A DNA stretch of 64,000 bases from assembly GCA_000092065.1 (NCBI GenBank), contig CP000582.1, one strand, 5' to 3'. Below, one piece after another: positions 29,473 through 64,000 of this stretch (its first letter is position 1; every line of letters starts with the position of its first letter). The translations under genes were made by a program, and so were the position numbers. Under the pieces are notes generated by a model, which saw only the letters and a list, made by a program, of their open reading frames with translations, was not told the origin of the DNA and did not search any database. Source of the DNA: Ostreococcus lucimarinus. Lineage: Eukaryota.

Positions 29473-29687
29473 TCCGAATCGATCGTCCGCGCGTTCGCGC
29501 GCGCGTCGGCGATGCCTCGGCGCGAGACCGCGGCGTCGACGATGCCCTCGCGCGCCGTCGTCGAGCCCGCGCGCGCGTCGTCGTCGCGTCGCGAAGTCTC
29601 GTCGACGCGCCGTCGATGCGCGCGCGACGTCACGTCGCGACGCGCGACGACGACGGCGCGCGACGTCGCGCGCGCCGCGCGAGCGGG

Positions 29688-30770
29688 ATGTCGAGCGACG
29701 ACGCGCCGACGTTCGACGCGCTCGAGACGCGCCGCGCGTGCCGCGCGCTGCTGCCGACGCTCGATTTAGAGCGCGCGACCGAACGCTCGGTGCGCGAGGC
29801 CGTGCGCGACGCCCTGCGCGCGGCGCGCGGCGACGACGGGCGAGACGTCGATCGAATCGTCGTGCAAAACGAGATCGACGCGTTCCTGGGGCGCGCGGAC
29901 GCGGCGGTGGCGGCGAACGAGGACGGCGAGCGCGGGGCGACGACGACGGCGACGACGAAGCGCGAACGCGTCGACGACGAGGGGTCGCCGACGACCGGAG
30001 GGAATAAGAGGGCGAGCGCGACGGCGGAAGAGAGCGCGCTGGATGAAACGCGAGTGTTGGCGGCGCTGGAGGCGATCGGAGAGGACGGGACGGAGGCGAA
30101 GGCGTTGGCGAGCTTTTTGAAGCGCGACAAGACGGCGGTGAACAAGGCGCTGTACGCGATGGCGGCGCGCGGATCGGCGAGGAGAGAAGACGGCGAGGGC
30201 GGGGCGCCGAGGTGGTTCGTGGCGAACGCGAGGGTCGGTGCGAGCGAGGCGGCGACGACGCAGAGCGCGCGGCCGGCGAGCTCGACGGCGGACGCGGCGA
30301 CGACGGACGCGGCGACGAGCGCGGGCGGCGACGACGCGGTGGAGAACGAAGTCGTGGCGCTGTCGAAGACGAAGCGCGTGACGGTGCGAAAGTGGAAGGA
30401 AACGACGCTCGTTGACATTCGCGAGTACTATCAAGCCGGTGGCGAGGGACCGTACAAGCCGGGGAAGAAAGGGATTTCGTTGTCTTCGGCGCAGTGGCGG
30501 GTGCTCGACGCGAACATCGATAAAGTGGCGAGCGCCATCGAGGCGTGCGAGGCGTCGAGCCAAGAGCAGCTGGTGTGCGAGATGTCGAACACGCGACGGT
30601 GCACGGTGAGCAAGTACAAAGGGAAAGTTTTGGTCAACATTCGCGAGTACTACGAAAAAGATGGCGAGATGCGACCGGGAATGAAAGGAGCGTCTCTCGC
30701 GGTCGAAGCAGCGCGACGTCTCGTCGCGCACGCGTCGCAAATTTCTGCGCGCGTGGCTAGCCTCGAGTAG
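29688..30770 (+). CDS. PC4/Sub1-family transcriptional coactivator with two PC4 ssDNA-binding domains and an N-terminal DEK-C-like module (KELP-like)
   Basis: Two copies of the PC4 core are present: RWKETTLVDIREYYQAGGEGPYKPGKKGISLSSAQW and KYKGKVLVNIREYYEKDGEMRPGMKGASLAVEAARRL. Confidence 0.7.
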   Translation: MSSDDAPTFDALETRRACRALLPTLDLERATERSVREAVRDALRAARGDDGRDVDRIVVQNEIDAFLGRADAAVAANEDGERGATTTATTKRERVDDEGSPTTGGNKRASATAEESALDETRVLAALEAIGEDGTEAKALASFLKRDKTAVNKALYAMAARGSARREDGEGGAPRWFVANARVGASEAATTQSARPASSTADAATTDAATSAGGDDAVENEVVALSKTKRVTVRKWKETTLVDIREYYQAGGEGPYKPGKKGISLSSAQWRVLDANIDKVASAIEACEASSQEQLVCEMSNTRRCTVSKYKGKVLVNIREYYEKDGEMRPGMKGASLAVEAARRLVAHASQISARVASLE

Positions 30771-30844: not shown

Positions 30845-32608
30845 TCACTCCTCGAACGGTTGTTCGAGTAACTCTTTTCGAATCCACACCGCGTAATCGT
30901 CGCCGTGCGTTGCGAGCTCGAACTCTGCGATTTGAGCGAGTATTTCACCCGGAACGTCGTATCTCGGCCCTAGCTTGACGATGATTTTGTCATCGATGAC
31001 CGCGACGTATAAATCGCTCTCGGCGATTTTGATGTCAACTCTGCTCTCGCAGCACACGTTGGCGAGCTTACGGCAGCTCAACAAAGCTCGAATTTCTGAT
31101 GTTAGCGATTAGGACCAACCCAAGTTTTCGTCGCAGCACCAAATGTGCGGGCCAAACACGCAGGGAATGCCGGGATGCAGAAGCGTGTACGCGTAACCCA
31201 AACCGAGACGATCGAGTGGAAACGGCCAGTGATTCTGCGGGTATCCGGTATCGTGGTTGTCGAGAAATGTCACAGCACTTTGCGGTACCCAGCCGGCAAG
31301 CCCAGGCATGCCGCCTTGCTGGTCTCGTAGCCGCCAAAACTCTACTCGCTTGACTGCTTCTTGTAGAATTCCCTTGGTCACGAAGTCGAACAACGCCGCG
31401 CATTCGTCTGCGGCGTTCAACCAATCCACGAGCACGCGTCTCGGCTTGTCTTGATTGTACTCGAGAAAGCTTCCCGACCACGTCATCCCGACCCAGTTCT
31501 CGCCGACGCAGAATTGCTCAAATCCAACCGTTTTCTCCACATACTCTCTCACGAAATTCGGAGCGTAGCCTTGGACGAAATCGAACCTCCATCCGCTGAA
31601 ACCGATGTCATCTTTCAACCAGTTCAACCACTCGATGATCGCTTCGCGAATCTCGGCGTTTGTGTGGTCGAGATCAGGGGCGATTTCGATCGAGTCGCCA
31701 CTATCGTTGGCTCCTTGACCTTCGCGAAAAAATGGATCGTCGCCGACGATGGCGTAAGCTCCCCAATTTATTCGTCTCCCGCTCGGCGTTACTTCGTCCG
31801 CAAACGAGATGAAGCGGCCATCCGAAGCGTACTCAGCGCAACGATGGTTGATGACGATGTCGCACACGGCTACTATTCCGGCTTTTTTCAGAGCCTGTAC
31901 CAACGATTTAAGCTCCGCTTCATCGCCGTACTCGCTACCGTCCAAGTTGTAAATTTCCGATGGCATGTAACCGTGCTCGTCTACCGATAACGACGGTGGA
32001 GGCAACCAAACGTGCGTAAACCCGAAATCCGCTATCATCGGCACTCGATCCTCAATTCTGCGATAGTAAGACTTGTCGCTGTGTAACGAACGCTTCGTCG
32101 ACAACCAATCGAATGCTTGTAAAAGCACGACGTCACTGTAACCAGTTTTACACGTCGAGCATTTGGCCTCCTTCACCGTGCACGCGCTCACCGCGACTTC
32201 TACCTCATCCATCTCGCGCTCGATAAACCGCTCGAGTAAGTCGGAGCTCTTTCCCGGCTCAAACAGCTCAGTCGACCCGCGGTCCCGGAAGACGGCGCGC
32301 GCGTGCTCGATCGCCGGCATCCGCACCGCCGCCGATAACGCGTCGAAGGCGACGTCGGACGCCGACGCCGCAACCTCGTCCTCCTCCTCCTGGACCTCTA
32401 CGTCTCCCTCGCGCGCGCGCTCGACGCGCGCGTCTTTCACCACCCGTCTCATCGCGTCGTCATCACCGCCGCGCGCTCGCGCGCGTCGCATCCGCCGCGA
32501 ATCATCGCCGCCGCGCGTTCGCACCGGCCGAGAAAGTCGATTCGTGTCGCGTCCGGCGCGCGCCGCGCGCGGCGTCGCGAACGCCCGCGCGCGCGAAACC
32601 GCGCGCAT
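30845..32608 (-). CDS. AMY: Alpha-amylase (GH13, plant AMY-type) with transit-like presequence; the C-terminal beta-sandwich domain is separated from the catalytic domain by an in-frame TAA
   Basis: The catalytic domain has LLQAFDW, DIVINHR, GWRFDFVQGY, FLDNHDTG and HPGIPCVF. Downstream of the TAA at 31109-31111, the same frame encodes DLYVAVIDDKIIVKLGPRYDVPGEI..THGDDYAVW, which is the plant alpha-amylase C-terminal domain. See findings. Confidence 0.8.
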
Positions 32609-36468: not shown

Positions 36469-38058
36469 ATGTTGATCGATAAGTTCACGGTGGAGAGCGC
36501 GACGGTGCGGACGATCGAGGACGGGGCGACGGGGATCGAGTACGTGGAGAGCGAGCACGCGTACGCGAGCACGAGGGTGGAGCGAAGGACGTCGACGAGC
36601 GTTGAGGGGAAGGAATGCTTCGCGCTCGTGCCGGAGACGAAGAATTTTACGATTCGGACGCGGACGAGCGTGCCGAAGGTTGGGATCATGCTCGTTGGGT
36701 GGGGCGGGAATAACGGATCGACGCTCACGGCGGGTATGCTGGCGAATAAGCACGACGTGACGTGGAATACGAAGGATGGGGTGCGGAAGCCTAATTATTA
36801 CGGCTCACTCACGCAGAGTGGGACGTGCCGAGTTGGACATCTCGAAGGCGAGGAGGTTTACGTGCCGTTTAAGTCGTTGATGCCGCTAGCGAATCCGAAC
36901 GACGTCATCGTCGACGGATGGGACATCAACGACGCGAATTTGGCGGACGCGATGGAGCGAGCCAAAGTTTTAGACTTCGATTTACAAAGGCAGCTCCGAC
37001 CCCGTATGGAGGGGATGAGGCCGCGAGCGAGTGTCTTTGATCCGAAATTCGTCGCGAGGAATCAGTTGTCTCGCGCAAACAATGTCATCGGCGGGTCAAA
37101 GACGGAGCAGATGGCGCAGATTCGCGCTGACATTCGCGATTTCAAGGAAAAGAATGGAATCGATAGTGTAGTCGTGTTGTGGACGGCGAACACGGAGCGT
37201 TACTCGGAAACGCGCGAGGGCGTGCACGACACAGAAGAAAACTTGCGAAACGCCATCAAAACGGGCGAGGAAGAGATTTCGCCAAGTACCTTGTTCGCCT
37301 TGGCGTGCATAGACGAGCACACACCGTTCATTAACGGAAGTCCACAGAACACGTTCGTGCCAGGCGTCGTGCAAGCGGCGGTTCGCCTGAACTCGATCAT
37401 CGGTGGAGATGATTTCAAGACTGGTCAAACGAAGATGAAGTCGGTGTTGGTCGACTACCTCATCGGCGCTGGCTTAAAGCCGACATCCATCGTGAGCTAC
37501 AATCACTTAGGTAACAACGATGGTTTGAACCTGAGTGCGCCGCAGACTTTCCGATCCAAGGAAATCTCTAAGGCGAACGTGGTTTCAGACATGGTGGCGA
37601 GTAATCCGCTGCTTTACGACGAGGGCGAGGAGCCCGATCACACCGTCGTGATCAAGTACGTCCCGAATGTCGGCGATAGCAAGCGAGCGATGGATGAGTA
37701 CACCAGCGCAATTTTCATGAACGGCGAAAACACGATCGTCATGCACAACACGTGCGAGGACTCCTTGCTCGCGGCGCCGCTCATCCTTGACTTGTGTCTT
37801 GTGGCCGAACTCTTGACGCGCGTCGAAGTCAAGTGCGAAGGCGAACAGTTTCACAGCATTCACCCCATCGCGGTGTTGCTCTCGTATTGGAGCAAGGCCC
37901 CGCTCGTGCCAAACGGTATGCCCATCGTGAACGCTCTCGCGAAGCAACGCGCCATGCTGGAAAATTTCTTCCGCGCCGCCGTCGGTCTCGCGCCCGAGAA
38001 CAACATGTTGCTCGAGTATTTCGCGGTGACGGGTCAACAGTCCCCCGCATCCGCGTAG
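36469..38058 (+). CDS. INO1: Myo-inositol-1-phosphate synthase
   Basis: A full-length 529-aa [27 protein letters not shown] and the NAD-binding and catalytic regions are collinear with eukaryotic MIPS. Confidence 0.92.
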
Positions 38059-38837
38059 TACCAGGTTCCCAATAGCCTGCAGTGGTAGATTCTTTTATCA
38101 TTATTCACGGCCGCTCGCGTCGGTGATCAATACTTTTCGACGCGTTCGGCGCGTCGACTCCGCACTCGTCGCCCGGTCGCGGCGTCTCGATGTCCCCCGA
38201 GGGCGACGGCCACGCCCGCGCGCTCGCGCGCGCGCGCGAATACTCACGAAGCGTCGAGTCGAGCGACGCATCGCGCGCGCGCGCGAGCGCGCCCGTGCGC
38301 GCGTCCTGGGCCGGCGGCGCGCCGACAACCGTTCCGACACCCGAAGTCGCGCGCGCGACGAGCGACGCGCGCGCGTCGCCGGTGAAACCGCGTCCCAACT
38401 TGAAGTTCTTCGGTAACACCGTGCGCGCCATCGCGAGCGCCAACGCGAGGATCGACGATAAGCGCCGAGCCGAGGGCGAGAGAGAGAGAGAGACGCCGCG
38501 GCGAGACGCCGCGGGCGAGACGAGGCGAAGAAAAAGCGATGGACGGGACAGGAGACGTTCGAAAAAGCGACGCGAAGGTGGGAACGGCGTCGACGCCGAA
38601 CGTTGGGATCACGTTCCACAAAGGGAAGAGAAAAGAGAAAAGGTGCGGGTACCGGTGGTGAAACCGAAGCCGGCGGCGGTAGAACGCGAAGAAGGCGAGT
38701 GGTCGAGCGGGAGCGACGCGTAGCATGTACAGTACAGTGTTTTTGTATTCAAAAGTTGTGGAAAATTAGGCAAAAAAATGGGTAGAAAAGTTGTCGTTCA
38801 ATGTCATCAATGTGATAGTACAGATGTCAGGGGGCGG

Positions 38838-56206: not shown

Positions 56207-57142
56207 TCATAGTTTCTCTCCGATCAACTTTTTAAGCAAAACGCGTCTTGCTCCGAGTACCCCGCCGAGTCCGTACCACCACGGATCTTCGCCACAGGCG
56301 ACGTATCCCCGGCGCTCATACATCTCGCGTGCGCGCTGATTATCGACATCAACATGAAGCCAAAGATGGGTGTATCCCCAAAGCCGCGACGCACGTTCGC
56401 ACTTCACCAACATCGAGCTCGCGACGCCTCGTCCGCGCGCGTCGGCTTTGACGGCGACGTTACTGACGTACGGAACACGTGGTTTTGTCGTCGGAAATGG
56501 CTCCGGAAATAAAGCTTCTGGTGAACACACGCGAAGGCTTGCGCTTCCTACCCAACGAGACTCATCATCGGCGACGGCTTCGTCCAGGCGCGAGATCAGC
56601 GTCAAGCACTGCGCCTTTTGTCTCGCGCGAAGCGCTCGCGCGTCGTTTTTCGCGTATTCATCGCCGAGTTTCTTCATTTCACGAATTTCACGACTCGCCT
56701 TCTTCCGTTCTTCAATCTGGTGCGTCGTCATGTGCTTCAACTCCTTCGCGATCGAGCGCGCGTACGCGTCGTCCAACATTTTCTTCACCGCCTCCGCCGC
56801 GTCGTCCAGCGCGTCGCCGCGACGCTCGGACTTTTCCTCGACTCGCGTTTCGTACGCGAACGCGTCCCCGCAGACTTTCGCCGCCGCCGCCGCGTGCGCC
56901 GCCGTCGTCGCCACGCGCACGTGCACGCGCGCGCCGCGCGCCGCGCTACCGCCCGCGTCGTCGGCGGCGCGCGTGGACGTCGGCGAAGCGTCGTCGACGT
57001 CCGGCGCGGACCGCGTCAGCACGCGCGCGCGCGTCACCGAGGACGACGCGCGGGGAGTCGAGCGGCGCGACGGCAACGACGACGACGCGCGCGCGGTGGG
57101 ACAGGACGCACGCGCGCGCAGAGCGATTACAGCGGGCGTCAT
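56207..57142 (-). CDS. GNAT-family N-acetyltransferase with transit-like presequence
   Basis: Acetyl-CoA motif VAVKADARGRGVASSML and ..THLWLHVDVDNQRAREMYERRGYV are present. Confidence 0.7.
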   Translation of the reverse strand: MTPAVIALRARASCPTARASSSLPSRRSTPRASSSVTRARVLTRSAPDVDDASPTSTRAADDAGGSAARGARVHVRVATTAAHAAAAAKVCGDAFAYETRVEEKSERRGDALDDAAEAVKKMLDDAYARSIAKELKHMTTHQIEERKKASREIREMKKLGDEYAKNDARALRARQKAQCLTLISRLDEAVADDESRWVGSASLRVCSPEALFPEPFPTTKPRVPYVSNVAVKADARGRGVASSMLVKCERASRLWGYTHLWLHVDVDNQRAREMYERRGYVACGEDPWWYGLGGVLGARRVLLKKLIGEKL

Positions 57143-57357
57143 AGCTTCTCGCAGGCCGCGGACGAGTGGCGCTGGAATGATCGCATCAACCCCGCTTGAG
57201 GCAAACAAACAAGGACTGAAGGAGACAAGACTTCGCTCAGCTCAGGAGGACGTTGTAAATAAGCTCTGTGCTTGCTCTTTTTCTAATGAACGGTGAATTC
57301 GACGATGATTTCAAAGACGGTTTAACTTGAATATTTCAAGGGTGTCGTACGTGATAC

Positions 57358-59324
57358 TTAAAATCGCTCACCGAATCGAACATATGTGGAGGCCGTGCCG
57401 CTGTTGTTATCAATGCACCACTCCGCTCGCACCGGCCCCAGTTTGATACCAACACCGTGAGTTGATCCTTTACCAGCTCTTCGATAAAACTCCGTTGGGT
57501 TACCTGATAACGCTGAACTTGACGATAAGTCGGAGCATTGCTCCCAAAATAAGAAGCCGTGTGTTTTCAATACAGGAACAGGGAGGCGTATCTCAACTGC
57601 AGTCTCGAGAAGAGAGCGTGCGGCGCCAAGTTCACCCACGGTGTATCCTCTACAAGAGTGCGGGCCACCCAAAGCAAAAGCATCGTAAGCTGCGCAATTC
57701 CCAAGAATGTGACCTGCTCGAGTGTGCAAGACAACAACAGGAGGAGGAAGAGAATTTTTCTTGTTTTCTGGCAGCAACTGAACAAATCGTGTTAATTCGA
57801 CTTTGGAACGGTTGAATATCGGTCGTTTTGGCCAAAACGGAATCGACTGATCGATCTGAAATATATCTCGGGCGCCGACTTGCGTACCGTTTACAAACGT
57901 CGTCGTGTCTCTGGTGACATTACCCTGAAGGAACATGACTCGATCTGTACCTGTGTCAGATAACGTAGTTCGAGGACCATCAAGCGACAGAGAACCATTT
58001 GGGAGTTGTTTTGCGCCAGACGCACATACCGCTCCCGAATCATCACGCGTTGTCACTTCTTCTAATACCATACCAAGTGAGCACTTCGACTGCTTTGTAA
58101 AGTTCTGGCAAACCGTCGCCTTGATACCTGCTCTATCGACCCAAATGCCGGGAACATCTTGAATCAGAGGCCCTCCGGTGAAGACCGGGGACAGTTTCCG
58201 CGAATTGAAAGCCGCAGCTTTGAAAGATGTCTTATCGCTATCAGCGTCGCCTTTGCAGTACGGGTGGTTGTACTCCAGTTTGAACCCCAGATCTTCCTGT
58301 GGTTCAAGGAAGTTGGCTGTTGAAATCGACCCAAAAAGTTGACGTCCCCAGCTATCCAGATTCCTGTGTTCAAAGAACACAGAACCACCTGGACGCGCCG
58401 AAACAAGATCTGGACGACCATTTTCACCTGGTGCGATACTCCATTCAAGTTCAGTCTCCGCTGTCTTCGTTGGTCTTTCGCGAAGTAGTATATCAACTTC
58501 AATTTTGGATGGATCGCGCTCATCAGGTCTCGGTACAACTTGGACGTTGTCAAACAACTGCAGTAGGAAAATATCACGCAATGCCGTCTTCGCGTCTTCG
58601 ACGTTATAGAGTTTTCCAACTTTAAAATTATGTTCCCTCTGAATCACACGCGGATGAGTCACTCCCTTGTTGCCAGGCATTGGCTGGAGATTCTCGTCTA
58701 CAAAGACCGCTTGGACTCGTGTGATTTCTCCCTCGACGACGTGTGCTATGACCTCACCATTTTCCATTCCATCGAAGTGTGATATCGTACCGAATGTGAG
58801 GCCCTTGCTGGTGTAGTAACCCTCTACGATATTTTTTGCTGTCGCCAACACGCGGACTGTACAGTTTTGACTTTTCCGAGCAGCTTTCAAAACCTCTTGT
58901 TCGACATCTTTTGGAAGTGCAGTCGACCCAGCAACTCTAAACGATTGTACCTGCGGCCAGATCTTTTCTCGAAAAACAAACTCAACTGCGTAACCATCCT
59001 GTTTGGGCGTGACATTGGCGTCAACGTTTGCGAAGAGACCTGTGTTAAGAAGCTGTTCAAGATCATCAGAGAGATCTTTCTTCGAAAGTTCCGCGCCCTT
59101 CCGCGCATTGAGACCCTGAAATAATTCGGACTGTATTGAAAGGAGTTAGTAATAAGTTAAATATTCATGCCGCCTTCCTTACCTTCGTCGGAATACCTGG
59201 ACCGGTCGGAAGATTCGTCGCGAGGACTGATTCACAAATGAAATTATCCCTGTTCTTGGGCTTGTTTGCGGCACGGGCAGTATTTGTGGAGGATTCGTCG
59301 TCGCTGTCGTCGTCGTCATCATCT

Positions 59325-59362
<38 letters not shown>

Positions 59363-59812
59363 GTATTCAACATCGTCGTCGTCAACACTGAGCTCGCCTT
59401 CTCCACCGGAAGCTCGAGCGTCAGCGATAGGAATCGCGGTCAGAAGGTAAATGTTGCTACCACTGTGGCCACTCGAATCGTCAGAGTCCCAACCGTCACC
59501 ACTACCGTCGTTGCCATTCCCGATGCCGGAGCCATGATTTCCACTACCTCCACTTCCAACCTCTGGTTCCTCAGTCACAGAGCTGCAAGCTGTTCCTTGT
59601 TTATGTTTGCTCCTGAGGGTTACACGAAACAAAGAGCGCGACGGTGTGTTGCGCGTGGGCGAAAAAGACCAGTTGGTGCCGGAAGCTCGACGGCTAAATT
59701 TTCCACCCGATGATGCTACGCTCGACGACGCTTTATGTTTATTGTATCGGTGACTGGGCGCGGCGGACTTGATGAAAGCGGCGCGGGAAGAGACCTCCGC
59801 AAGGACGGACAT
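57358..59812 (-). CDS. TOC75: Toc75/OEP80-family (Omp85) chloroplast outer-envelope beta-barrel protein, two exons
   Basis: Exon 2 (57358..59130) encodes POTRA-like repeats and a barrel ending ..GVGIKLGPVRAEWCIDNNSGTASTYVRFGERF, with the GYTVGELG motif. Exon 1 (59183..59812) encodes a transit-like, Gly/Ser-rich stretch and a poly-Asp run. A 52-nt phase-0 intron joins ..PTK | SELFQGLNARKGAEL.. Confidence 0.75.
59131..59182 (-). other. Short spliceosomal intron (52 nt) with GTAAGG donor, TACTAAC branch motif and TACAG acceptor
   Basis: The frame is continuous only if this segment is removed; its stop codon otherwise splits the Toc75 ORF. Confidence 0.7.
59296..59390. repeat. (GTC/GAC)n trinucleotide array encoding poly-Asp in Toc75 exon 1
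   Basis: About 18 consecutive gtc units lie on the + strand, giving DDDDDDDDDDDEDDDDDD in the protein. Confidence 0.8.
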
Positions 59813-60250
59813 GTTCTATCGAAGGCCGCTGTTCTCTATCAAGCGCCAGGGTGTACTTGAATTTTTCGAGAGACTCAAAATGAACCTACTATAAGTGGCG
59901 GCAGCGGACTCAGCCGGTTGAGCACGGCGCGCGAATGACGCCGTGCGCCCTCAAGGGCGAAAGGCTTGAAGCGGAAAGGGTGTCATAATCGACATCGCGC
60001 TTTTCGTATTTAATACGCTTTGAAGACCATACTGGTACCCAAAATAAAAAACTATCATGTAGGTCTCCCCCGAAGGAATAATTTATATCAGACAGATAGA
60101 CTTTAGGCGAATGAAGACAAATTATATGCATTCTTAATCAGTTCATGTTTCGAGTTTACACATAAACTGAGGCGCGCAGCGGCACGGAGCCGTCGACAAC
60201 CGTGCGGCCGCCACTCGCGCGAGGATATCCCATGCACCACAGCTTTCTGA
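59813..60250. promoter_or_regulatory. AT-rich bidirectional promoter region (Toc75 / LTV1)
   Basis: It is ~45% GC with TATAAG and TATAAA-like elements, in contrast to the GC-rich divergent spacers elsewhere in the window. Confidence 0.4.
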
Positions 60251-61624
60251 ATGGGAGGTCGCAAGAAGACGTCGTTTGTGGATAAAAAGAGCGCGGTGAC
60301 GTACGCGTTGCTCCCTAACCACGACCGACAAGCGCACAGCCTCGGCCTTCCTAACACATGGGTCCGGACGGACAATAACCAGGGTGCGGACCCCTTCGAT
60401 GACGGCGATCACGTTGGGCGGGAACTCGAACGTGAGCTCCGAGAAAGCCATTCACAACACGTGTCCGCGGGCGATCTTTCAAATGAAAAGGACACAAACA
60501 ATAAATTGACGGCATCAGAGAAGTTGGAACTAGGACTTCCAGACGACGGCTATGATTACACTAAACACTTAAGAGAGTGCGACCCAGATAAAGTACGTAC
60601 CGTAGAAAGTGATTATGCAAATCCACGCAGTGAGATATTTACGAAAAGCATTGACCACGCAAGAACCGAGTATGCGGGCGGGGCAATGAACCAAGGCGAG
60701 TGTGATTTTCACACCTTGCACGAACAAGATAACATTGCCGACGTGTTACAACTTCTTGACGACATAAGCCAAGGCGGATCAATGGAAACCTGCGCTTACG
60801 AGGAGTTACAAGACGATATAATTTTCTTGGCTAGTCAGCGTAAAAGTGAAGAGCGGTGCTCATCGCCTTTCTTGCCCCGAAAAGTAGAGCCGTTGAGTCC
60901 GCAAACCCATCGTGCAGCCACGAAAGTATTAGTAAGAAGTTCAAGTGATGCGGTAGGGAACGAACGTTCAGACGATAGCCATTTTCTGCGTATGATCCAT
61001 AACTACGATGACGACGATCTTGGCGCTACGCCGATGAAAGATGAGAGCAATATTAGATCTGAGAACACAAAATGGCAGACTCTTGAGCAGTTGAACTTCA
61101 ACGATGGAAATTTACAAAAGCATAACGTGGATGCACGCACAGTGAAAAGTTATGCGCTCAATCATAGTGAGGAACAAACTCCACGAAATGCCTACTTAGA
61201 AGAAAGCATTCTGGACAAAAGAACTCAAGCGACCCACATGTATGACTGCGAAAGCATTTTGAGTTTGCACAGTAACTCAAACCATCATCCAAAACTTCTT
61301 GAAGGGAGACTTCTGAGTGAAGAACGTAAATTGAAAACGCCAGATCAACAGAGTGCAAGCATTCCGGGCATTCATACTTGTTTTCCTCTCGGTATGAAAG
61401 CATCATCAGAAGCTGAATTCGATTGGCGCAGCTGCACAGCTCGTAAAGGAGAAAGTGCTCAACAGAAAAAGGAGCGCAAAAATGCCGTCAAAATGGGCCG
61501 TCGACAAGCTCGAAGTACGAAAAAGGGGTTGAAAGAAAGTTTTCAATATTTCAAGCAAGCAGGAGCTGGGGGCGGTAGCTCTGGGGATGTAAGAGCAAAG
61601 ATATCTGTGACAAAAATGCAGTAG
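60251..61624 (+). CDS. LTV1: LTV1 pre-40S ribosome biogenesis factor
   Basis: The N-terminus MGGRKKTSFVDKKSAVTYALL matches LTV1 (MGKKKxFIDKKxAxTF). The basic C-terminus (KKERKNAVKMGRRQARSTKKGLKESFQ) is also LTV1-like. Confidence 0.7.
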   Translation: MGGRKKTSFVDKKSAVTYALLPNHDRQAHSLGLPNTWVRTDNNQGADPFDDGDHVGRELERELRESHSQHVSAGDLSNEKDTNNKLTASEKLELGLPDDGYDYTKHLRECDPDKVRTVESDYANPRSEIFTKSIDHARTEYAGGAMNQGECDFHTLHEQDNIADVLQLLDDISQGGSMETCAYEELQDDIIFLASQRKSEERCSSPFLPRKVEPLSPQTHRAATKVLVRSSSDAVGNERSDDSHFLRMIHNYDDDDLGATPMKDESNIRSENTKWQTLEQLNFNDGNLQKHNVDARTVKSYALNHSEEQTPRNAYLEESILDKRTQATHMYDCESILSLHSNSNHHPKLLEGRLLSEERKLKTPDQQSASIPGIHTCFPLGMKASSEAEFDWRSCTARKGESAQQKKERKNAVKMGRRQARSTKKGLKESFQYFKQAGAGGGSSGDVRAKISVTKMQ

Positions 61625-61675
61625 CATATCCATGTGGTTGCTCAGTTCTGAAGCATTTCTAGCGTAGGCGCTGTA

Positions 61676-64000
61676 TTATTTAGGTGTCATTTTCGACAAC
61701 AAATTGATCGCATCTGATAGCGCAGATTCATCAATTTTTTCTTCTATTCGCAGATCCAAGTACTTGTGTTCGATACCGAAGCATAAAGACAGCTCGTTGG
61801 AAATCCCTTCAAGCTCACTGATGACACAAATAGGAATATCAGACATGAAGTCAGGATTGACACGGAATAATGGATCACGCGATGAGTAGAGGAGCTGAGT
61901 GCAGCATAGAATACTCAATGTCTCGTTCGGGCATTCATTGACACTATTTGGATTGCTCTCTATAAATACTCTGCGCAAACTTGCGTTGACAGATGCGGAT
62001 TCGTTCTTGACTTCAGGATAAGAGGATGCAAGCAATGCCGCATAACTGAGAATTTTTCCTACATCCGAATTATTCTGTTGCGAGACGAGGACTTCATACT
62101 CTTTTGTGAATAAAGTAACCAAGCCAAGTATTTTTGGGTTCGACTGTATTGCATCACTGGCTTGCTCGCGCCAAGATGGGTCTGCGCATACATGTTGCTT
62201 TGTTTCACACAGTCTCACGAATTCTCGAGCGATATACACTCCTAAACCACGCGTGACTAGTATCACTTCATCGCCGTTGTTAATGTCTAAATAAGCGCGT
62301 ATGCGTTGCACATACATTGCGGCAAGCTCTGAGACGCTTGCTGCGGTGGAGGATTGCCAGTCCGTAGTAACGACGAAAGCTGCTGATTTTATCGACGAAG
62401 CTAGGCTGGAATAAAAACTAGTTCCACAGTCTACGTCATTGAGAAAGACGACTATGGGAGTTGTTGTATTACCATTCAATCGCGTAATAAAGCTTCGACT
62501 CACAGGTGAATTTCTATGCTTCCATTGCGGGAGTCGGTATCTCAAAGTAGCTGCAATGCGCTGAGATTGCTCAGATAGGTTACCTGGAGAAGCTGCATCT
62601 TTCCAGGCATTGGCCAGAGTCGGATTTATGAAACAATGCGACAGAATATTAGGGTCTGCGGCACCTTTTCCTCCCGGTTCGATGGGCTCAAACATTTTCG
62701 CATTATTATAAGAATAAGGATTTGTCATGTTCGTGCAAGAGGGCAATTTTAGAAAGTCGCATATTTTGTCGATATGCGACGTAGGATCAGAAACTAGGTC
62801 TTCGTAACAAATTTCCAATTGTCGAGTACTTTCTACATTGCGCAGAAAATCAATGATGTTGGAATTTCCTCGTGCCCATAATTTATCCATATGGCTCCAG
62901 ATCTGCTCGATGGTGGATGCAGATAGAAGCTCCAAACGTTTGCGGCCATTTAATTGTAGCAACTTCTCATTTTCAAGGATATCATGCCTTGATTTGAAAG
63001 TTTCTTTTGACATGGAGTGGATCGTTGCGTACGGATGCCTGTGTATGAATATATAGTACACATCTTCAAATATTGATTCGGCTCGTTCCAAAGTGTCCAA
63101 AGACCACGAATAAGGTGGCGACTTGTCCACTAGAATCCGATCGCCACACCAATTTTGAAGGACTTCATAGACATTCTTTGTTGACATGGAATGCATGTCG
63201 TGCATTATTTTATCAGCTTCATCGGCGAAACAGCCGCGAAGTTCTACAATAGCTTTACGCAAACCTTCAAACGCCCACGAGTGTCCACGAGATATTGACT
63301 CAAACCTTTGGTACATCGTCTCAAAATTTAGCAAGTAAAGTTCTTGAGGTGCAAAAATTGATGGATGAGAGTTTAGTATCATCTGCAAAAGAGTTGAACC
63401 AGACCTCGGCGACGACAACACGAATAGTATCTTTCCCTTCACCTTTGGCTCGTGGAGCCGTAATCGGGGCATCCATGAATTCGAATCTGTTAGTGGCGTA
63501 TACTTTTTAACTTGCGACTCTATCCACAAACAAATGCGCTCACCGGCACTTAATCCTACTGAGAATGTTTCGCGTGTGACCACTTTGATTGCGGCGTCAA
63601 CACTCGCTGCGATCCCTTTGATAGTATTCTCTCTGAATTCGCCAGACCCACAGTGGCTGAATCCAATATCTCGCAGTACATTGTGCAAAGGCTCTGACAT
63701 TGACAGTGGATGTCGGCGTCGACATGGCTCGTTTCTGCTAAGTGAGCTGTGTAACTCGTTCCAAATACATTTTTGTAGTTGGAAGGTCAACCGATTTGCG
63801 TCAACATGAGTATTCTGGTTAGCGGCGTTGCATCTGGTAAGTAGAACGTTTTGTCTGTGGCGAGGTTCTTGAAAAGCCCGGCAATCGCGGCGCACATTTG
63901 TGAGCACGTGTGCCATACTACCGCCATAACCAAAAGAGCTCGTGCCGATTATACCTCCGCTAGTGGGCCCTTTTAGCATAGGAAAGTGTGATCGCTTGTC
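61676..64000 (-). CDS. 3' end of a type I polyketide-synthase-like gene: KS C-terminus, a CurM/OLS-type sulfotransferase (ST) and a thioesterase-like alpha/beta hydrolase; truncated at the window edge
   Basis: The reading frame is open to nt 64000. GIIGTSSFGYGGSMAHVL resembles the KS C-terminal motif (SSFGFGGTNAHV). KILFVLSSPRSGSTLLQMILNSHPSIFAPQELYLLNFETM matches the PAPS-binding start of CurM-type activating sulfotransferases. The C-terminal ~250 aa (PIVVFLNDVDCGT..EVILVTRGLGVYIAREF..) is collinear with offloading thioesterases. Confidence 0.65.
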   Translation of the reverse strand, partial: DKRSHFPMLKGPTSGGIIGTSSFGYGGSMAHVLTNVRRDCRAFQEPRHRQNVLLTRCNAANQNTHVDANRLTFQLQKCIWNELHSSLSRNEPCRRRHPLSMSEPLHNVLRDIGFSHCGSGEFRENTIKGIAASVDAAIKVVTRETFSVGLSAGERICLWIESQVKKYTPLTDSNSWMPRLRLHEPKVKGKILFVLSSPRSGSTLLQMILNSHPSIFAPQELYLLNFETMYQRFESISRGHSWAFEGLRKAIVELRGCFADEADKIMHDMHSMSTKNVYEVLQNWCGDRILVDKSPPYSWSLDTLERAESIFEDVYYIFIHRHPYATIHSMSKETFKSRHDILENEKLLQLNGRKRLELLSASTIEQIWSHMDKLWARGNSNIIDFLRNVESTRQLEICYEDLVSDPTSHIDKICDFLKLPSCTNMTNPYSYNNAKMFEPIEPGGKGAADPNILSHCFINPTLANAWKDAASPGNLSEQSQRIAATLRYRLPQWKHRNSPVSRSFITRLNGNTTTPIVVFLNDVDCGTSFYSSLASSIKSAAFVVTTDWQSSTAASVSELAAMYVQRIRAYLDINNGDEVILVTRGLGVYIAREFVRLCETKQHVCADPSWREQASDAIQSNPKILGLVTLFTKEYEVLVSQQNNSDVGKILSYAALLASSYPEVKNESASVNASLRRVFIESNPNSVNECPNETLSILCCTQLLYSSRDPLFRVNPDFMSDIPICVISELEGISNELSLCFGIEHKYLDLRIEEKIDESALSDAINLLSKMTPK

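Follow-up and report, generated by a model that had tools for sequence, protein, structure and literature searches.

An alpha-amylase gene on the minus strand of a 64,000-nucleotide stretch of Ostreococcus lucimarinus DNA (contig CP000582.1, hereafter the window) very probably carries a genuine C-to-T nonsense mutation that is private to strain CCE9901, and this makes it a probable loss-of-function allele and an incipient pseudogene. According to the proposed course of events, a single transition in an intronless, plant-type GH13 gene would have turned Gln500 (CAA) into TAA; wild populations of O. lucimarinus keep the gene intact, and the mutation is confined to the CCE9901 lineage. Translation by the standard code would stop after codon 499, with no splicing involved. 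The predicted product would keep its catalytic residues, would lose helix alpha8 of the barrel together with the whole C-terminal beta-sandwich, and would probably be misfolded or inactive. Presumably the loss is tolerated through several alpha-amylase paralogues of Ostreococcus.

The window was assigned to CCE9901, which serves as the reference for this picoeukaryotic green alga, because its inositol-3-phosphate synthase (MIPS; 36469-38055) is identical at 529 of 529 residues to the O. lucimarinus CCE9901 protein XP_001416131.1. The entire ancestral gene for the alpha-amylase (30845-32608, minus strand) has 587 codons followed by TGA, is intronless and is colinear, with no gaps, with the intact gene of a metagenome contig (L001). 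It encodes an Arg/Ala-rich N-terminal presequence, the GH13 domains A and B, and the C-terminal domain C. Its start, an ATG at 32608, is predicted, the position being that picked by the gene caller on wild contigs. The open reading frame (ORF) that remains open in the window strain is truncated to 499 codons plus TAA (31109-32608, minus strand), as given by the ORF list, the sequence and an identical predicted protein (P0132). Read directly from the window, it runs ...HPGIPCVFGPHIWCCDENLGWS and then meets TAA at 31111-31109. The mutated base of this premature stop, codon 500, is 31111 (T on the minus strand, A on the plus strand), and the ancestral codon is CAA (Gln). Past the TAA the unchanged frame reads SLTSEIRALLSCRKLANV...DDYAVWIRKELLEQPFEE (also given as SLTSEIRALLSCRKLANV...GDDYAVWIRKELLEQPFEE) and closes at TGA 30847-30845. 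This orphaned in-frame remainder (30845-31108, minus strand; 87 codons plus TGA) encodes helix alpha8 and the whole beta-sandwich of domain C.

A preliminary description of this DNA, made from the sequence alone, had stated that a GH13 catalytic ORF ends at the TAA and that the same frame downstream encodes the C-terminal domain of plant amylases. Both statements were borne out in Pfam searches, in which the upstream ORF matched PF00128 (E = 2.8e-16) and the downstream frame PF07821 (Alpha-amyl_C2; E = 1.6e-21). A downstream frame that is open and encodes the correct domain is far beyond chance. The GH13 motifs DIVINHR, GWRFDF, GENW and FLDNHD all precede the stop and align with those of barley AMY2; they contain what we take to be the catalytic triad, namely the Asp in GWRFDF, the Glu in GENW/AEIW and the Asp in NHD. 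In the intact allele, residues 161-576 align with barley AMY2 (1amy; HMMER, E = 2e-110). The PF07821 domain is contiguous with the barrel in wild alleles, whereas in the window strain it is cut off from the catalytic ORF by the TAA. Judged by these matches, the gene is a plant-type GH13 amylase by descent, and its predicted product in the window strain is truncated.

The comparison with orthologous amylases of related strains that the preliminary description had called for was made on 27 distinct related contigs, 24 of which are not identical to the window. Codon 500 was CAA in 23 of them, GAA in one and TAA in three, and the 24 nucleotides around it that had been proposed as an intron were always kept. 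The TAA was restricted to the three contigs that are 100% identical to the window. Between the intact gene of L001, which encodes 587 residues, and the window, 11 of 1764 positions differ (99.4% nucleotide identity). The GAA was found in a relative of 93% identity, and at the position of the stop the syntenic orthologues have AAC (L013), GCC (L015) and AAA (L014). As aligned, the stop is derived with respect to both close and distant relatives.

The stop is also reproducible. The truncated 499-residue product was called independently on contigs of three sequencing runs (SRR1179203, SRR1179204 and SRR23274481; Logan assemblies). Over 13337, 8927 and 2866 bp respectively, the TAA-bearing contigs match the window at 100.000% identity; for wild contigs the figure is 98.8-99.6%. 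As three separately assembled runs match the window completely, the TAA was taken to be a real C-to-T change and not an assembly error. Recent pseudogenisation had been one of several alternatives in the preliminary description, and it is the one supported by a stop that is derived, private and reproducible.

The position of the stop in the fold was read from an AlphaFold2 (AF2) model of the intact wild protein, in which beta8 spans residues 481-485, alpha8 residues 502-515 and the domain C strands residues 524-577. Across the junction region the predicted local distance difference test score (pLDDT) of this model is 83-97. With a stop at codon 500, the truncated CCE9901 product is, by this model, most likely non-functional or severely impaired.

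Wild haplotypes are polymorphic in amino-acid sequence only within the N-terminal presequence. Because variation in the mature enzyme is exclusively synonymous, the full-length enzyme was concluded to be under purifying selection in nature. One metagenome contig (L008; Ga0163111_10001528), whose amylase has a 6-nt in-frame length difference from the window (alignment of 1770 versus 1764 positions, one gap opening), was left out of the simple per-site comparison of haplotypes. Compared with 7-8 wild haplotypes, the window allele has, besides the stop, four private substitutions, all given for the minus strand: the non-synonymous A246V in the catalytic domain (31872), a synonymous change at P216 (31961), and the non-synonymous F537V (31000) and L542I (30985), both within the orphaned remainder. 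The private changes of the amylase are thus four non-synonymous to one synonymous, against 7:10 in neighbouring genes (Fisher one-sided p = 0.16) and against 0:3 for wild polymorphism (p = 0.07). No further stops or frameshifts were seen in the window amylase. The lesion is evolutionarily young, and for this reason the downstream domain still looks perfect. Redundancy among paralogues may buffer the loss, by analogy with O. tauri, whose alpha-amylase genes number four, including one on chromosome 2 (PMC3056741).

Several points weigh against a loss-of-function allele in decay. The signal of relaxed constraint is weak, neither contrast being significant, and the three private substitutions of amino acids are conservative ones at sites that are variable. 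Certain GH13 enzymes are tolerant of truncation at the C-terminus. The gene count on which buffering is argued is that of O. tauri and not of O. lucimarinus. We infer that the TAA is retained in the mRNA of CCE9901 and that the full-length protein is absent. Finally, the three runs would be less independent than assumed if they came from one DNA preparation; they would still be separate read sets and separate assemblies.

Among the other explanations, the one that survives best accepts the mutation as real and holds that the 499-residue enzyme is active, or that the loss was adaptive, selected in the lineage or in culture, and did not come from neutral decay. It is consistent with the location of every GH13 catalytic motif upstream of the stop and with the maintenance of the allele across data sets with far-apart accession numbers, and for streamlined picoeukaryotes the loss of a gene can be adaptive. 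The explanation is opposed by the truncation itself, which by the model would take alpha8 of the (beta/alpha)8 barrel and domain C, and by the purifying selection on this region in wild haplotypes, which have no amino-acid polymorphism in the mature enzyme; we regard it as improbable. In a wider form, which is only slightly less improbable, CCE9901 would still make some functional enzyme, either by low-level readthrough of the TAA or as an active amylase devoid of alpha8 and domain C, or the knockout would be adaptive, changing the turnover of starch in the reference strain. If this were true, either way the widely used genome and culture that serve as reference for O. lucimarinus would be those of a natural mutant in one isoform for starch degradation.

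The preliminary description had also considered an error of sequencing or assembly; in that case the reference genome would be wrong and the real strain would have CAA. A single-base difference from all wild relatives does have the look of an isolated base-call error. The TAA is, however, carried by three separately assembled read sets, of which SRR1179203 and SRR1179204 are adjacent accessions and SRR23274481 is a far higher one, and none of the intact-gene contigs among those fetched derives from these three runs. Moreover, the four other private substitutions in the gene make the haplotype distinct anyway. An error is therefore very unlikely, and a genuine mutation in CCE9901 is preferred. 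The contig of the third run (SRR23274481_53583; L003 / L017) has a contig number above 53,000, which suggests a complex sample, such as a co-culture or an environmental one, and not a clean genome run; if it was environmental, the CCE9901 genotype or the allele occurs outside the culture collection.

Equally little is to be said for programmed readthrough, a suppressor tRNA or a variant code in which TAA means Gln, any of which would still yield the full-length enzyme with Gln500. TAA is read as Gln in ciliate and dasycladalean-type codes, and such a scheme would fit the ancestral Gln and the wholly intact downstream ORF. The 30 long ORFs of the window end in TGA (14), TAG (8) and TAA (8), and as all three triplets terminate other genes of the window, the standard code applies, and this stop usage led to the rejection of a variant in which TAA stands for Gln. 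A programmed site should be conserved, and no relative has a stop here, so that the readthrough raised in the preliminary description found no support. In addition, the context TCC-TAA-TCG-CTA fits neither of the readthrough motifs TAG-CAA-TTA and TGA-CTA/CGG, and TAA is generally the least leaky stop.

The weakest explanation is the one that the preliminary description had put first, namely that a 24-nt spliceosomal intron is removed together with the stop to give a full-length protein reading ...DENL-EIRALL.... The sequence itself is as it had been given: the string GTTGGTCCTAATCGCTAACATCAG sits at 31119-31096 on the minus strand, covers nearly all of codons 497-504 (GWS*SLTS) and the first base of Glu505, has GT..AG termini (31119-31118 and 31097-31096) and contains CTAAC. 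Its length is a multiple of three, and its removal leaves exactly the number of residues found in barley between a conserved His and Ile. In-frame GT..AG segments of up to 24 nt could remove 21% of the codons in the ORFs of the window, so GT..AG ends are weak evidence taken alone. When CTRAY was also required, only 0.3% of codons were removable, a figure that speaks for the intron and comes from a criterion picked after the sequence had been seen. The stop-creating C-to-T also makes a second CTRAY motif, CTAAT (31108-31112, minus strand), just upstream of CTAAC, and so makes the segment look, misleadingly, even more like an intron.

Relatives place the segment in the coding sequence. It is kept in frame and stop-free in 24 of 24 non-identical relatives, which means that the ancestral state is coding. 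A protein search with the hypothetical spliced protein yielded a 98% identical protein of 587 residues (P0001) that equals the spliced model plus exactly eight residues; its junction reads ...CCDENLGWSQSLTSEIRALL..., with the segment present and Gln at the position of the stop. Within the 24 nt, CAA versus TAA is the sole difference between L001 and the window. Orthologues of 57-67% identity that share the DUF547-amylase-PC4 neighbourhood all have a homologous in-frame segment (YCPSNTLKGEI, MCWPKSLPGEI and ACWNANLPREI). In a codon view of syntenic orthologues GT was missing in L014 and AG in L013, L014 and L015, and CTAAC was gone even in the 93% identical L012 (CTA CCA). The segment is coding sequence and not an intron, because its frame, Trp and Leu persist throughout while GT, AG and CTAAC vary.

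The candidate also misfits the known introns of the species. Those of O. lucimarinus, as deduced from expressed sequence tags (ESTs), have a mean length of 188 bp and a shortest inferred length of 26 bp, with a class of 40-65 bp on chromosome 2 (PMC2367439); the candidate is shorter than any of these. EST-confirmed introns off chromosome 2 have GTGCGTG at the 5' end, ACTGAC as branch motif (87%), about 20-35 nt from the branch to the AG, and CGCAG at the 3' end, and chromosome 2 introns favour GTRNGT (PMC2483917). The candidate has GTTGGT, CTAAC and ATCAG, with only 4 nt from the branch A to the AG. A pattern that allowed 0-24 nt between the flanks matched seven metagenome contigs of the JGI, and none of these contigs, which are probably DNA, lacked the segment (7/7 with the full 24 nt). 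Taken together, we consider removal of the stop by splicing to have next to no probability. A longer intron across the stop was ruled out, as in wild alleles the ORF is uninterrupted and stays colinear with barley AMY2 over the whole region.

As to the barley spacing, the arithmetic of the preliminary description was confirmed; its meaning was not. MAFFT alignments and HMMER alignments to AMY2 (1amy) placed the Trp and Leu of the segment opposite DW--GLKEEI of barley, and both programs put the gap opposite the upstream WCCDEN. Chlorophyte amylases (TWGPDLNKAI) have the same W-x3-L-x3-I spacing. As aligned, WCCDEN is an insertion specific to this orthologue group of Mamiellales. The barley length was matched by coincidence, because eight coding residues would be deleted beside a six-residue insertion and barley has a two-residue gap of its own. 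In the modelled fold the beta8-alpha8 loop ends, and helix alpha8 makes its first turn, within the 24-nt segment; excision of residues 497-504 would cost the conserved Trp and this first turn. The case demonstrates a trap, in that a lineage-specific insertion beside a lesion makes the excision of a coding segment mimic the spacing of distant homologues.

The amylase lies between the DUF547 gene and the PC4 gene. The latter, directly downstream of the amylase (29616-30770, plus strand), encodes a Z-alpha domain (PF02295) and a PC4 domain (PF02229), as given by precomputed Pfam matches of an identical Logan gene call; this architecture is kept in syntenic orthologues (L014, faint match). Two further differences were noted near the MIPS gene. 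Eight bases 3' of it (38358-38365; ACGAGCGA, plus strand) are absent from three of three wild contigs that cover the site, a strain-private indel in DNA taken as intergenic by a partial gene list. The MIPS stop (38056-38058) is TAG in the window strain versus TAA in three of three wild contigs covering it, a synonymous stop-to-stop change. The window is gene-dense with about 60% GC, which is lower in the last 6-7 kb (43-48%; 43-53% across 57000-64000). The ORFs at 57358-58890, 60251-61624 and 61676-63979 have a GC content at third codon positions (GC3) of 0.43-0.46 versus 0.6-0.85 elsewhere in the window. This composition suggests that the right end is the edge of the low-GC outlier region of chromosome 2, where short atypical introns have been reported.

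The value of these results lies in a caution and in a correction of the annotation. A gene model that bridges the stop by a 24-nt "intron" would be wrong, and in the annotation of CCE9901 the locus should appear as an alpha-amylase gene disrupted by a nonsense mutation. For those who use CCE9901 in work on starch metabolism or who count GH13 genes, this isoform is probably null in the strain and intact in natural populations.

Compared with known amylases, the intact wild allele shares the GH13 motifs and the PF07821 beta-sandwich with barley AMY1 and AMY2 (1amy, 1ht6) and with the O. tauri family, including Ot02g05490, and its alignment with barley AMY2 runs from end to end (E = 2e-110). This Mamiellales orthologue group is set apart by a long N-terminal extension and a six-residue WCCDEN-like insertion in the beta8-alpha8 loop, and the CCE9901 gene by a stop that cuts it before alpha8. 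The introns of Paramecium, about 25 nt long (median 25; PMC2483917, Table 2), resemble the supposed intron only in their GT..AG ends and in a length near 24 nt; the lineage of the candidate has much longer confirmed introns with different, strongly constrained signals, and the segment is coding in all relatives. The closest parallel is provided by strain-specific nonsense alleles or unitary pseudogenes of laboratory reference strains, which show the same single derived transition, private to the strain, with the gene intact in the wild and the downstream ORF undecayed. Nothing sets the CCE9901 amylase allele apart from these; it is a nonsense allele of the ordinary kind, private to a strain whose genome serves as reference, and represents no new biological phenomenon.

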